Assembly (NCBI GenBank): GCA_951406725.2
Contig: OX597816.1
Coordinates: 138,694,001 to 138,758,000 of the forward strand
DNA from: Octopus vulgaris
Taxonomy: Eukaryota
Direction: 5' to 3'
Length of the DNA: 64,000 nucleotides
Shown: piece by piece, positions 609-42,500 of the stretch
Layout: every line of letters begins with the position of its first letter
Position numbering within the stretch: position 1 is the stretch's first letter
Notes under the pieces: generated by a model
The model's database searches: none
What the model saw: only the letters and a program-made list of their open reading frames with translations
What the model was told of the DNA's origin: nothing
Program-made: the position numbers and the translations under genes

Positions 609-676
609 CATCCGTTTAATGTAAATAATGTAAATAATGTACATAATTCCTCATCTCTTCAATATAGAACTGTATT
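609..676 (+). mobile_element. 3' tail fragment of the hammerhead-bearing (Penelope-like) element seen at 27603-27753
   Basis: ATCCGT..AAATAATGTACATAATTCCTCATCTCTT(C/A)AATATAGAACTGTATT matches the reverse complement of ~27603-27662. Confidence 0.6.
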
Positions 677-4834: not shown

Positions 4835-7433
4835 GATTTTGATTTTGATTTTGATTTTTCCAGTTTCAGCTAATGAGCTGTGGCCATGCTGGGGCACCGC
4901 CATTTGGTTTGCTACACGGGTTTACCTCACGGATGCTTTTTAGCAAACGCCATCTGATGCATGAGAGAGTTCGATGCAGCTGCCCTCATATGCACCTCCT
5001 GCCGTGAAGTTGGTTCATCCGGGACACCTGACAGGAAGAGATCCAGTCCTACTTTAAAGACATCCGCATCTACACCATGCAGGTCCCTCAGGTTCTTCGG
5101 GAGGACATTGAAGAGCCGTGGGCCTCTGAAGCCCAGGCTATCACAATATCTTGTCCTACATCTTGATGGCAAATTTGGAGTCCTTGGTACTACGCAGTGG
5201 CGTCCGGTTCTGGCGTTTGTGTGACTCTCGATGCCAAAGTCTGGGACAAGACCTTCCAGGATCTTCCAGATATATATTATGGCATATCTTTCTCGCCTAC
5301 GCTCCAGGGAATAGAGCTTTAATCTCTTGAGTCTCTCCCAGTAGCTCGTATGCTGCACAGAGGCTATCTTCTTCGTGTAGCTTCGTTGGATCGCCTCAAG
5401 TTCTGTGATCAACTTGACACTGGATGGTGACCATAGCTGAGAGCAATAGTCAAAGTGGCTTAGGACAAGTGTCTTCCAGAGGACCATCATGGTTTCTTGT
5501 TCTCTTGTTCTAAAGGTTCTAAGAATCCATCCAGCCAGCCGTCTGCATTTCATTGTCAGTTTAGCAACATGTACATGAAAGGTCGCGTCATCACTCATGT
5601 GAATACCCAGGTCACGCACTGATTGTGCCTCTGGGATTGCAATCCCTCCGGGTCCAGTGTATTCATTGGGTATTGCATTCAGTTTTGCATGCTGATAGTA
5701 TAAAGCTTGAAACTTTTCAGCATTGAACTGCATGCTATTCTTTTCAGCCCACTTGTATATTTAGTCCAGCTCACATTGCAGGTGCTTAGTGTCTTCAGGG
5801 TTCTGTATTGCCTGTGAAACTTTTGTATCATCTGCATAACTTGTGATCGTGGCTCTCCGCGTGGCTGAGGGCATGTCTGAGAGGGCCATTATGAAGAGTA
5901 GTGGTCCCAAAACAGTGCCCTGTGGAACACCGCTCACTATTCGCGTGCTAATGGAAGTGGCCCCATTGGCTGCTACCACCTGACTTCTATTCTTCAGAAA
6001 GTCATGAAGCCATTCTCCTAGTTTTCCAACTATGCCAAGATCACGCAGTTTGTGACATATCATTCCATGATCGACTTTATCGAAGGCCTTTGCGAAGTCG
6101 AGATATATGACTTCCACATTTGAGTGATTGAGCAGTTGTTTCAGCACCCAGTCATAGTGCTGCAGGAGCTGAGTTAAGCAGCTTCTTCCTGGTCGGAAAC
6201 CATGTTGGGTGTCAGGCAGCAAGTCATTTTCTTCAAGGAAGGTGATTAGTTTCCTTCTGACTATTCGTTCCATGACCTTGCTGATGTGTGAGGTCAGAGA
6301 GATAGGTCTGTAGTTCTTGGCCTCCGCTCTGCTACCTCCTTTATGAATAGGGCATATTTTACCTTCCTTCAGTTTTCTTGGAAGTTTGCCAGCTGCAAGG
6401 AAGCTCTGAAAGAGGAACTGCAGTGGTCTTGCTAGGACTCTCTTACATACTTTTAGGAGGATTGCCGGGAATCCATCGGGGCCAATAGCTGAGTCTGTTT
6501 TCATTTCATCTATAGCCTTTATTACATCGTCTTCCTTTATATCGATGTAATTTATCGTCGCCGCCTCTGATTCTATATCTGCAGTGGTAAAGAAGTCAGT
6601 TGGATTGCTGATTTGGAAATGTCCAAGGGGTGGAGTGAAAACACTCTTGAATTGTTCATTCAGTATTTCACTTACCCTTATTGGTTTTCCTGTGAGTGTG
6701 CCATCCTTTTCAAGGAGTGGCCCTATCCTACAGTGCACCGTAGCTGTTTCTTTGGCATACCTGTAGAAAGCTCTGGGGTTAGTTTTTATGTTGTCTATAG
6801 CCCAGGCTTCTTTGTCTGCTCTCTCCTTCTCATGGGAGAGTTGCAGACAATTTTCAATTTCTAACAGTTTTATTTTCAGGCGGGACTTTTCACTGTTTTC
6901 AATTTGTTTGTTTAGGCGATTTGAAATTTTTGTACGCCGTCTCATTAAAATTTTCCTCTCTCTGGGGATTTTGTTCTTGTGTACAGTGGCCTTTCTCTCT
7001 GGGACACATTTGTAGCATATGGCTTGCATTACAGACATGAATTGTTGAAGTATCATGTCGATGTCCGGCGAAGAGAGACATTCAGGCCAGTTTTGTTTGA
7101 GGATCTCTTTCTCAATTTGTTTCCAGTTTGCCTTATTGAAGTTCAAGCTGGAAAGATTCTGAGGGTTTCTTGTAGGCTGCATGTCCGTGCTCTCTTTTGG
7201 CCCGTACATGGTCAGCTCTACCATGTTGTGATCCGAGAGTAGTGTCGGTGTCACTTTCACATTATGGATGAGATCCATATTATTTGTGAAGCAGAGATCC
7301 AGTGTGTTACCTGCTCTGGTTGGTTGGAGTATACTTGCTCCATGTACAGGGTGTTGATGAGGTACAGGAGGGACCTCGCCTGTCCTCGTTCACATCTTGT
7401 CATTCCTGGGAGAGAAAGGCCCTCGGGCCATCT

Positions 7434-7436
<3 letters not shown>
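4835..7436 (-). mobile_element. 5'-truncated CR1-group LINE (end of APE endonuclease + RT), frameshifted
   Basis: ORFs 5761-7278 and 4927-5733. Motifs PTRAGNTLDLCFTN, SDH, NYRPISLTS, QHGFRPGRSC, YLDFAKAFDKVDH, GVPQGTVLGPLLF, YADDTK, LERRRER. (AAAATC)n 3' tail at 4835-4860; flanked by (TA)n on both sides. Confidence 0.93.
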
Positions 7437-7510
<74 letters not shown>

Positions 7511-7859
7511 TGTTACGAATATAAAATTATATTCAAATAATTTCTCATTCGTACGACGCCGAATTAGAACATCACTCTCTGTTTTTGCAAGCAAATTGTC
7601 TTGCTGAGCTCGCTTACGGTCTTCCGAGATATCGGACACAGACAATTGGAGCCTGTTGGTGGTGTCGGGAAGCCGCGTGGGGCGTAAATACATACACACA
7701 CACATATATATATAAAATTGTTTACTGCACGATAACGGTATTTATCCATTGATTGTATTGCCTGTTATGATTTGTGGAAGCTTCAGCAATGAAAAATGTT
7801 TAAAAGTTGGTAATTGCCGTAGTATCATTATATATCAAATGAATTACTGCAGTATAACA
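7511..7859. mobile_element. Possible solo LTR
   Basis: ~350-bp block bounded by TGTTA...TAACA; no convincing TSD. Confidence 0.3.
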
Positions 7860-7950: not shown

Positions 7951-8402
7951 GGAGTGGAGTGGCTGTGTGGTAAGTAGCTTGCTTACCAACCAGATGGCTC
8001 TGGTTCAGTCCCACTGCGTGGCACCTTGGGCAAGTGTCTTCTACTATAGCCTCGGGCCGACCAAAGCCTTGTGAGTGGATTTGGTAGAAGGAAACTGAAA
8101 GAAGCCTGTCGTATGTATGTATGTATGTATGTATGTATGTATGTATGTATGTATGTATGTATGTATGTATGTATGTGTGTGTGTGTGTGTGTTTGTGTGT
8201 CTGTGTTTGTCCCCGCAACATCGCTTGACAACCGATGCTGGTGTGTTTACGTCCCCGTAAAATTGTGATTCGGCAAAAGAGACCGATAGAATAAGTAATA
8301 GGCTTACAAAGAATAAGTCCCGGGGTCGATTTGCTCGACTAAAGGCGGTGCTTCAGCATGGCCACAGTCAAAATGACTGAAACAAGTAAAAGAGTAAAAG
8401 AG
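7951..8402 (+). mobile_element. tRNA-derived SINE (family A) with internal microsatellite
   Basis: GGAGTGGCTGTGTGGTAAG head, GGTTCAGTCCC B-box-like motif, CORE-like ACCTTGGGCAAGT, internal (TATG)n/(TG)n, (TAAAAGAG)n tail; at least 7 related copies in the window. Confidence 0.88.
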
Positions 8403-27465: not shown

Positions 27466-27784
27466 GGCGTAGACATGTCTGTATGGTAAGGGGTTTGCTT
27501 CCCAAACACATAGTTTCAGGTTCAATCCCAGAGCGTGGAAACTTGGGCAAGTGTCTTTTACCATAGGCTCGGTCCAACCAAAGCCTTCTAAGTGGATTTG
27601 GTAATACAGTTCTATATTTAAGAGATGAGGAATTATGTACATTATTTATATTTGACGGATATTTATCCTCATCTTGTTTGTTGTTAACACAACGTTTCGG
27701 CTGATATAACCTCTAGCCTTCATCAGGTGTCTAGGGGGAAATATCCAACCTTGGTGGATTTGGTGGACAGAACCTTAAAGCCGG

Positions 27785-27790
<6 letters not shown>
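27466..27790 (+). mobile_element. Family A SINE (5' half) interrupted by the insertion at 27603-27753
   Basis: ACTTGGGCAAGTGTCTT..AAAGCCTT..GTGGATTTGGT, resuming GTGGATTTGGTGGACAGAA. Confidence 0.75.
27686..27731 (-). ncRNA. Minimal type-I hammerhead ribozyme motif with intact core
   Basis: Minus strand GACAC-CTGATGA-A-GGCT-agaggttatatc-AGCC-GAAAC-GT-T-GTGTT; stem I 5 bp, stem II 4+ bp, palindromic AACGTT stem III. Confidence 0.75.
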
Positions 27791-27864
<74 letters not shown>

Positions 27865-34967: not shown

Positions 34968-35075
34968 CATTCTACTTCGGCACTATATATACTAAAAGTG
35001 GAACGATACATAGAAGGTTAGCATGTCCCCTGCGCAAAGATGACACACGAATTCGTGAAGAGTTCCACAGTTTTT
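34968..35075 (+). pseudogene. U6: U6 snRNA pseudogene
   Basis: CTTCGGCAC..TATACTAAAAGTGGAACGATACATAGAAGGTTAGCATGTCCCCTGCGCAAAGATGACAC..ATTCGTGAAG..TTTTT follows U6 end to end; ACAGAGA box mutated to ACATAGA. Confidence 0.92.
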
Positions 35076-39543: not shown

Positions 39544-39591
39544 AATTGCTAAACACACACAAACGATCATCTTTAATATAAACATTGTACT

Positions 39592-42500
39592 GTGGTTAAT
39601 CTGGAAGCGCGTCCCCCAGGGAAGAGCCAGCCTGGGATCGAAAAGTCATCAACTGGCACAAACTCTTCTCCGAATACGGATATGGATGGTCACTTGAACG
39701 GGAAATTCCCCAACTCGAGCCCTCCAAGTTCACCACCACAACCACCACAAAAAGAAAAAGGTAAGCGGAACAAATGGACCCGAGAAGAGTATAAAGAAGT
39801 AATATACGCTTATTACTATGCATTAGGTAGACCATCTCAAGAGAGACACACCGCAAACTCTTACAGTATATGGAGAACACGGAATCAAGACAGTAGACCC
39901 TATTTGAACGAGAACAAACTGGCAAATGTAAGACGGAATATCCTTAGAAATAATAGACTCACAGACATTGAAATAAGCGCGATCAAGCACGCAACGGAAA
40001 ATGACATAAATATAAGACACAAAGGAAATGAAGAATCAGATGAACAGAATAGCCCGCCACGAGGCTTAATTGAAAGACTGCCATCTGACCAAAGCACGCA
40101 AAAGCCTGAAGATACAAGAAATTCTATTGAACCTGTTAAAGATAGTCAGAAAAATGAAAAAACAACAGTAACTGAAGATCTCGCATTTGCTGAAGAACAC
40201 AGAGAGTCTCTAGCAGAAATGAGGCAGAAAATCCTGAATACGCTTGAAATTGTAAGACATACAAGTATGAATGATAGAGAACCACTTCATAAACTCTCAA
40301 ATACAAACCAAAATAAAAAACAAATCAAAATTGGCAACTATGTAACAAATGAAATAATACAAGAGTTAAAACCTGATTTTACTGAGTTAAATGAAATCAT
40401 TTACGCTTGTGCTAGGGCAATTGAAACCAGCTGTATGACCCGAAAAACAAGGAAAACCAAACCTGGGAAGATATCAAACCCGGAGAAGTAAAATTGAAAA
40501 AGAGATTGAATTTATGAGAGGGGAAATATCAATATTAAATGAACTAATATGTGGAAATGATGTAAGATCCAGAACAGGAAGAAAGATGAAGAGAAAATTT
40601 GGATCCTCACCTAGAGAAGAACTGATATCAATAAAAGAAACGCTGAAACAAAAAGTCCAAGCAAAAGCTCAAAGAATACGAAGATTTGAGAAGAGAAACA
40701 AGTTTTACAAGCAAAATAAGTTGTTCACATCCAATGCCAAAAAATTCTACAGAGAAATAGGTAAGGAGAAAGTAACCGTTAAAGACCCCCTCCCATGGAA
40801 GAAGTTAAAAACTTTTGGAAAAGGATTTGGAGTGACGAGAAGACGTACAACATAAATGCAGACTGGATTATACAAATAGAAGGATCCTACCAAAATTTAC
40901 AACAACAAGCATGGGAAGACATCACAATAGCAGACCTAAGAAAGGCACTCACGAAGGCCCATAATTGGAAATCCTCCAGTAAAGATAGGGTGCCGAATTT
41001 CTGGCTCTCATCGCTCCCATGCGCACACGGTAAGCTAGTTCAGCTGCTCAATGAAATTATGAGAGACCCAAAGAAAACAACTGAATGGTTAGCAAGTGGT
41101 ATTACTTACCTACTCCCAAAGGATAATGAGACCAAACTTCCAAAAAACTATCGGCCTATAACCTGCTTATCCACCACGTATAAAATCCTAACATCTATCC
41201 TGGTGGAGAAAACATATGCATTCATGGAGAAGAACGATATTTTCCCCACTGAACAAAAAGGGTGCCGCCGAGGCTCATACGGATGCAAAGATCAACTGCT
41301 AATTAATCGTATGATCCTTGAGAACTGTCACAACAAGCGCAGAAATCTCATCTCCGCATGGATTGACTATAAAAAGGCCTTCGACAGTATACCGCATTCA
41401 TGGATCTTGAAATCGCTGGACATCTTCAAAATTTCCCCTATGATTTCAAGCTTCCTGAAGCATAATATGTCGTTGTGGAATACGAATCTGCAATTATACC
41501 ACTCTAATGGAGTATTCGCCTCAGAGAATATAAACATCAACTGTGGCATTTTTCGAGGTGACTCACTTTCACCTCTAATATTCTGCATAGCCCTAATACC
41601 TATTTCTTTATTACCCACAAGGGACTAAACATAGAGGGGACAAACAAGGACAGACATAGGTATTAAGTCGATTACATTGACCCCAGTGCGTAACTGGTAC
41701 TTAATTTATCGACCCCGAAAGGATGAAAGGCAAAGTCGACCTCGGCGGAATTTGAACTCACAACGTAACGACAGACGAAATACGGCTACGCATTTCGCCC
41801 GGCATGCTAACATTTCTGCCAGTTCGCATAGCCCTAATACCCCTTACAAGTGAATTAAACAGAATAGGGTATGGGTATAAAATTGTCAATAAAAAAATAA
41901 GCCACCTATTTTATATGGATGACTTCAAACTCTATGGTAAAGAAGATAATGAACTTGAAGGCCTATTGCGCACTGTGAAAGCATTCAGTGATGATATCGG
42001 GATGGAGTTTGGGCTTGAGAAGTGTGCCAAGGCCACTTTCCAGAAAGGGAAAGTGAAGACCACAAATTCAGTCATGTTAGATGTTGGCATAGTCATAAGA
42101 GAGCTTGAGCAAGAACAAACCTACAAATATTTAGTGATAAATGAAGGCTCTGGTATTCAGCATGCAAGCATGAAAGAGAAGATCAGGAAGGAATGTTATA
42201 GGAGAGTTCGAGCAGTCTTGAAATCTGAACTAAATGCACGTAACAAGGTGTTAGCTATAAATTCCTTAGCAGCTCCAGTTGTTACTTATAGCTACAATGT
42301 GTTGAACTGGAATATGAGTGAAGTAAAGAAAATAGATAGGAAAATCGCAAGCTGCTGAGTTGTAATAGGATGCACCACCCAAAGGCAGACGTAGATCGCC
42401 TTTACCTCCCCAGAGCCCAAGGAGGTCGAGGCCTGATCCAATTTGAACTAGCTTACAAACAACCACAATTGGACTGGCCAAATATCTTGAAATAACGAAT

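Follow-up and report, generated by a model that had tools for sequence, protein, structure and literature searches.

A truncated Penelope/Poseidon-type end repeat within an octopus SINE and a recurrent three-nucleotide gap at the predicted hammerhead cut site of its family

Analysis of 64,000 nucleotides of the Octopus vulgaris genome (contig OX597816.1, positions 138,694,001 to 138,758,000; hereafter the window) indicated that a 151-bp insertion carrying a hammerhead ribozyme motif is the 5'-truncated end repeat (pLTR) of an abundant, decayed retrotransposon of the Penelope/Poseidon type, and not a separate unit. Very probably, the enzymes of this element inserted its last 151 bases into a pre-existing SINE. 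The insertion itself is ordinary; what is new is a gap of three nucleotides that recurs at the predicted hammerhead cut site in other copies of the family. We lean towards the reading that this gap marks hammerhead cleavage of the RNA within cells in the course of retrotransposition, after which the reverse transcriptase (RT) jumps the break; this would happen anew in approximately 11% of the arms.

The insertion and its host SINE

The insertion occupies positions 27603-27753 on the minus strand; in full-length copies, the same region also forms the start of the ORF. An identical 11-mer, GTGGATTTGGT, flanks it on both sides (27592-27602 and 27754-27764, plus strand), the probability of a random exact match of this length being about 2e-7, as calculated from base composition. 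The left copy of this target-site duplication is part of the host SINE, and the first 2 nt of the right copy also match the element, as microhomology at the 5' junction. The element match spans 27602-27755 and so extends into the duplication at both ends, by 1 nt (3' junction) and 2 nt (5' junction). Alignment with other SINE copies delineated a 5' part of the host SINE (27476-27602, plus strand) and a 3' part plus a (CA)n/(TA)n tail (27754-27860, plus strand). Upon removal of the insert and one duplicate, the flanks aligned without gaps through the site with the four intact SINE copies of the window at 7960, 39133, 60678, and 62133 (72-80% identity). Both the coordinates and this alignment bear out the original prediction of a 151-bp insertion in a SINE with an exact 11-bp duplication, and an insertion younger than its host is likewise supported. 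An orthologous empty site was not seen in the contigs of four runs, the assemblies of which were dominated by family members; the joints skipping the insert in these contigs had differing letters and were derived from other SINE copies.

A second, shorter 5'-truncated copy of the Penelope element, comprising the tail only and no hammerhead, is located at 609-676 (plus strand). Recurrence of the tail at this place had been predicted, and positions 627-676 are identical to the tail of the insert at 48 of 50 positions. A duplication flanking the 609-676 copy was looked for and not found. This copy carries an extra 9-nt unit; the unit is in frame, lies beside the inner of the two start points discussed below, and is present in two or three copies (at 609-676 and at many loci), both forms being common. 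As to other features of the window, the sole Rfam match was a full-length U6 snRNA at 34969-35074 (plus strand; 85 bits), with several substitutions, which may be a gene or a pseudogene. Broken LINE-like RT reading frames were located at 4930-7389 (minus strand) and 39577-42355 (plus strand).

The parent element

The parent Penelope element that had been proposed for the insertion was retrieved. Nearly all of the 29 other best matches to the 151-mer extend 5' into common element sequence, via an (AAT)n tract to a tRNA-like head, and one locus reaches beyond the head to the terminal part of an endonuclease ORF. Similarly, 24 of the 30 loci chosen by the end of the endonuclease ORF (query locus included) carry the 151-mer downstream in the same orientation. 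Furthermore, three loci (L105, L101, and L121) contain the 151-mer or its 3' part ahead of the ORF and continuous into it, in a partial tandem pLTR-ORF-pLTR arrangement. In L105, the 151-mer occurs at 802-949 and again from 3353, giving a unit of about 2.55 kb. The presence of the 151-mer before the ORF and at both ends of L105 means that the insert represents the end of the pLTR and the first codons of the ORF at once.

The element has a single ORF, retrieved as pieces in decayed copies, with an RT followed by a C-terminal GIY-YIG endonuclease. The RT was recognized by a Pfam match to RVT_1 (E=1e-10). A Pfam match to GIY-YIG was not obtained in the element; this domain was called from its motif and from the nearest atlas clusters, in which GIY-YIG is present in 12-27% of the members (score 0.96-0.97). 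Inspection of the translations by eye revealed no CX2-5CxxC finger between RT and endonuclease, a feature that separates Neptune and Nematis from Penelope/Poseidon (PMC8557442). Domains, layout, and absence of the finger together point to membership of the Penelope/Poseidon group. None of the 149 RT matches scored had an intact ORF, the longest open frame measuring 572 aa, so that the enzyme cannot be assigned to one source copy.

The hammerhead in the insert

Sequence, fold, and the published description of such motifs (PMC4209133) identified positions 27686-27731 (minus strand) as a minimal type I hammerhead without helix III. Stem I consists of 5 bp (27731-27727 with 27690-27686), followed by one unpaired base before stem II (27718-27713 with 27704-27699); a palindromic ACGU for dimer pairing takes the place of helix III. 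The core comprises CUGAUGA (27720-27726, minus strand) and GAAAC (27698-27694) followed by GUU (27693-27691; together 27691-27698, minus strand), with an intact predicted cut site between 27691 and 27690. Thus, CUGANGA, GAAA, UH, stems I and II, G10.1-C11.1, and a palindromic remnant of stem III, which define the minimal type I motif, were all present. Rfam returned no hammerhead match for the insert, in line with the absence of helix III. In full-length copies, the hammerhead lies within the first codons of the ORF. The original prediction of an unmutated hammerhead with a GUU site holds for the core (CUGAUGA/GAAAC/GUU) and not for the rest: comparison with the majority sequence and the fold revealed a G-to-A change at 27714 (minus strand) by which stem II loses its fifth pair and the ORF frame acquires a stop codon, and the insert as a whole differs from the family majority by 8 substitutions and 1 insertion (approximately 6%, near the family median of 5.8%).

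Throughout the family, the core contained 17 substitutions versus 30.4 expected from a matched background (P=0.006), in a comparison where the core is also coding and the copies are not independent. N7 was the variable core position, with T in 57 and A in 14 of 72 copies. An intact core was present in 59 of 106 copies, 21 of which also had all stems. The hammerhead fold of the window copy amounts to -6.5 kcal/mol versus -12.0 kcal/mol for the majority-type copy L139, its stem probabilities are near 0 in the 151-nt context, and the ACGU dimer duplex is weak (-1.7 kcal/mol). Cleavage by the hammerhead is predicted to require a dimer. Minimal hammerheads of PLEs are retained in nearly all animal Penelope elements, and are reported to be inactive as monomers and weak as dimers, with little cleavage in vitro (PMC4209133, PMC11167929). 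The broken stem II pair, the median age, and the need for a second hammerhead make the window copy, with its weak fold and a core that is commonly intact elsewhere, a poor choice for the biochemical testing for which it had been put forward as the best candidate; a tandem of a majority-type copy would serve better. As a separate observation, one family locus (L018) contained, about 520-580 nt upstream of the match, another repeat resembling a hammerhead, the core of which reads UUGACAA (U3-A8 covariation); such covariation has been reported in Schistosoma PLEs (PMC4209133).

Copy number and mode of insertion

Genome-wide, 4,141 exact matches were found for a 27-nt word of the tail and 1,352 for a 37-nt word of the hammerhead, with 0 for the reversed controls, so that a search for further copies of the 151-mer, as originally suggested, yields thousands of relatives. 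Among 70 loci picked by the tail word alone, 25 displayed duplications of 9-15 bp, one of these being a TA microsatellite, compared with 12 of 1,650 mismatched pairs; the two subsets gave 14 of 30 and 11 of 40 loci versus 7 of 870 and 5 of 780 mismatched pairs, respectively. The existence of further copies with target-site duplications, which had been named as a test of mobility, is thereby supported, while 45 of the 70 loci had no duplication by the criterion applied. An inverted 5' arm was present in 45 of the 70 loci, and most of these arms stop about 30 nt before the full 3' end. Hence, most insertions are head-to-head pairs in which the inverted arm is 5'-truncated and a tail of 30-40 nt is optional, a pattern that has been described for PLEs (PMC8557442). 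Loose read ends occurred at both 3' end points, which are approximately 30 nt apart. On the basis of these read ends and of the ends of inverted arms, the tail between the two preferred 3' end points was placed at 27603-27635 (minus strand) in the window. In the case of Poseidon_Ac of the green anole, the tail and the inversion were explained in vitro by initiation at two internal sites together with priming of both strands (PMC11167929).

The 3' end of the window copy coincides exactly with the preferred outer end point of the family. The 5' ends of the copies are spread across the pLTR, and 8 of 14 truncated inverted arms start inside the hairpin at the apex of which the window copy starts. 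The latter copy is devoid of the inverted arm present in most insertions, and its target is not AT-rich, as most family flanks are. Insertion probably involved the element's own GIY-YIG nuclease and RT, acting by target-primed reverse transcription: a staggered cut of the target would yield the 11-bp duplication, synthesis would begin at the outer start point and halt at the apex of the small hairpin, and the end would be joined through 2 nt of microhomology. As the insert spans the cut site intact, the template was either uncut or sealed without loss. The template RNA was likely uncut at the hammerhead, the ribozyme being a passenger in the window copy. Target-primed insertion, part of the original prediction, is thus supported by a duplication within the 9-15-bp range of the family, as a mechanism read from sequence. 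Mobility of the 151-mer itself was not supported, since it is the end of a longer element of which other copies run further 5', nor was an insertion driven by the ribozyme, given the intact cut site in this copy.

Two other origins of the insert were weighed against insertion by the element's own enzymes. Capture as a templated patch during DNA break repair, without the Penelope nuclease, is improbable: it would account for the microhomology at both junctions (1 and 2 nt), the target that is more G-rich than usual, and the missing inverted arm, but not for a 3' end exactly at the preferred end of the family or for a duplication inside the family range. That the 151-mer would be an independent ribozyme-bearing mobile unit, resembling retrozymes or SM-alpha, is still less probable, for although the insert has a clean duplication and an intact core, and the family includes a short, highly amplified form beginning at the tRNA-like head, this form measures about 280 nt and not 151, nearly all of the other best matches continue into element sequence, the 5' ends are scattered over the pLTR, the 151-mer forms the ORF start of a protein-coding element, and a tandem array of the 151-mer, for which a search had been advised, was not encountered among the loci examined, where copies are dispersed, solo or head-to-head.

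Preference is therefore given to the truncated end repeat, which nevertheless shares features with non-LTR retrozymes and with the SINE-like SM-alpha repeats of Schistosoma, namely a small type I hammerhead in a Penelope-linked repeat and, for SM-alpha, a promoter followed by a hammerhead (bioRxiv 10.64898/2026.07.22.740005, PMC6765202, PMC7229834). In contrast with those, the insert is neither a tandem repeat nor a non-coding family of its own. Classification as a non-LTR retrozyme, i.e. tandem non-coding repeats with a hammerhead per unit, was rejected, as the copies are scattered fragments of a coding element, either solo or paired head-to-head.

The tRNA-like head of the family

Family-wide, the pLTR starts with a tRNA-like head and the (AAT)n tract (e.g., L139:1472-1550 and L025:1376-1460). 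The head contains what we take to be A and B boxes, identified by eye. ARAGORN with a lowered threshold made a call in 7 of 30 heads, and Rfam returned no tRNA match in the heads. An exact 20-mer of the head occurred 5,148 times, compared with 1,080 times for a 20-mer approximately 45 nt upstream. Moreover, the 5' end lies between -12 and +7 of the head start in 24 of 30 copies selected by the head; L154 was removed from this set, since it is continuous with the ORF end. In the parent element, the head is preceded by a GCCC-AC-GGGC hairpin. The pile-up of 5' ends at the head may stem from transcription by pol III or from arrest at this hairpin, and the short copies are possibly a pol III-driven, SINE-like sub-population; the window insert has no tRNA-like head. 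Searches of the openly accessible literature, in which the only hits were reviews, gave no report of a Penelope pLTR with a tRNA-derived head or of a pol III-driven Penelope SINE. In two loci (L011 and L012), another repeat is located within the (AAT)n tract of the pLTR, upstream of the match, suggesting an element that targets microsatellites.

A recurrent gap at the predicted cut site

In copies that were not chosen by their hammerhead, by far the commonest deletion comprised 3 nt abutting or spanning the predicted cut. It was found 16 times, plus four times with CpG decay, among 193 unique copies, about 171 of which cover the site. A GT microhomology of 2 nt accompanies the gap, which leaves the reading frame unchanged. 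When all 30 possible deletions of 2-6 nt with a microhomology of at least 2 nt were considered in the approximately 171 copies, the others occurred 5, 1, 1, and 1 times and 25 were never seen. Tail-selected arms carried the gap in 6 of 50 cases. Exact genome-wide searches yielded 410 gapped versus 3,272 intact sites (26- and 29-nt patterns, respectively), i.e. about 11% of the arms, compared with 39 for a 5-nt deletion that overlaps the gap and has longer homology, and with 68 for an in-frame tandem AAC deletion (33-nt pattern). Seven gapped-hammerhead matches, six of them at a spacing of about 215 bp, were located at one place (G000:C2:2734247-2736003), which represents a tandem array of a pLTR fragment. 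A published description of a cut-site gap in Penelope copies was not found in the openly accessible literature.

Whether the gap is inherited was assessed with head-to-head pairs, starting from 90 gap-selected and 40 intact-selected loci that were sampled from the first 100 listed places each of the 410 and 3,272, all on contigs 1-3, and excluding the tandem repeats at one locus on C2. Among the matches listed, the two arms shared lineage marker one (11 pairs with both, 8 discordant, and 33 with neither; p=2e-5) and lineage marker two (10, 8, and 44, respectively; p=4e-6). Since arms usually share lineage markers, most pairs stem from one source, and some, such as those among the 8 of 52 pairs with discordant markers, from two RNAs. 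The gap was not shared in this way: the partner arm was gapped in 7 of 42 cases for a gapped index arm versus 4 of 14 for an intact one, among the matches listed. Gapped and intact copies among these matches had the markers equally often (23/88 versus 9/39 and 17/90 versus 7/39) and the same divergence (5.4%), and five gapped copies were scattered on a poorly resolved tree. Shared markers with an unshared gap indicate that the gap arose anew arm by arm, around the time of insertion or thereafter. Descent of the gap from a deleted source subfamily was rejected on these grounds, i.e. equal markers in both groups, a gap unshared by the arms, and no grouping on the tree.

The gap may result from cleavage followed by a template jump. 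The RT would copy the 3' cleavage product up to its first bases, GU, after which the end of the cDNA, the complement of GU, would anneal to the GU within the terminal GUU of the 5' product, so that exactly 3 nt would be dropped. The size of the gap fits such a jump. Trimming and ligation of the cut RNA ends would be another route to an identical gap.

Alternatively, and quite possibly, the gap says nothing about cleavage and arises from slippage of the RT at a folded, uncut hammerhead, from slippage at the DNA level at a later time, or from a source lineage that carried the deletion. The GT microhomology and the preserved frame agree with this, as do several results at the cut site. A pile-up of 5' ends there looked promising in 30 loci and was not significant in 70 (4/32, P=0.10; 2/14, P=0.25). 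Three RNA-seq runs of one study, the species label of which may not be that of the window, showed no common read start or end at the cut site, fragmented libraries being a weak test. These runs contained 5,616-7,785 family reads each, with both strands equal and 86-87% continuing into unlike sequence; the gap was present in approximately 10% of the reads, the same share as in DNA, and the RNA reads thus add nothing on cleavage. In addition, one CpG site was linked to the gap (20/82 versus 1/35, uncorrected p=0.004, among the matches listed), and weak links to two other sites in an earlier, smaller sample were gone in the paired-arm sample. Slippage is however countered by the rarity of the other microhomology deletions, both in the 171 copies and genome-wide, including the one with longer homology, and a source lineage by the paired arms, which share markers and not the gap. 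Slippage at the uncut fold stays quite possible all the same; cleavage with a template jump remains the reading towards which we lean.

Comparison with known systems and significance

The octopus element resembles Poseidon_Ac (PAc) of the green anole (PMC11167929) in its ORF with RT and C-terminal GIY-YIG, its pLTR, an ORF start overlapped by the hammerhead, a tail of 30-40 nt set by two internal start points, priming of both strands, and uncut RNA as the main template. It differs in the tRNA-like head and (AAT)n tract with which its pLTR opens, in a hammerhead core located wholly within the open frame, in the decay of the family, and in the recurrent 3-nt cut-site gap, of which the accessible text of PMC11167929 makes no mention. 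Similarly, the octopus hammerhead shares with the minimal type I hammerheads of metazoan PLEs (Cervera and De la Pena 2014, PMC4209133) a 5-bp stem I, the unpaired base, G10.1-C11.1, the palindromic 15.2-16.2 without helix III, and the occurrence of thousands of solo copies from truncated elements, whereas its stem II counts 5-6 bp in the family (4 in the window copy) versus 7-8 bp in the latter.

For Poseidon_Ac, hammerhead cleavage needs protein, insertion in vitro proceeds without cleavage, and no RNA reads were found to end at the cut site (PMC11167929); evidence for in vivo cleavage by PLE hammerheads was stated to be absent (PMC4209133). This leaves the puzzle that hammerheads are widely kept, yet are poor cutters in vitro and dispensable for insertion in vitro. 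A recurrent, non-inherited gap exactly at the cut site would constitute indirect evidence that they do cut inside cells, and that they do so on the RNA serving as template. If true, hundreds to thousands of copies would preserve a fossil record of a PLE hammerhead cutting in vivo and of a Penelope RT jumping between templates, and the gap would provide a simple assay by which such cleavage becomes testable.
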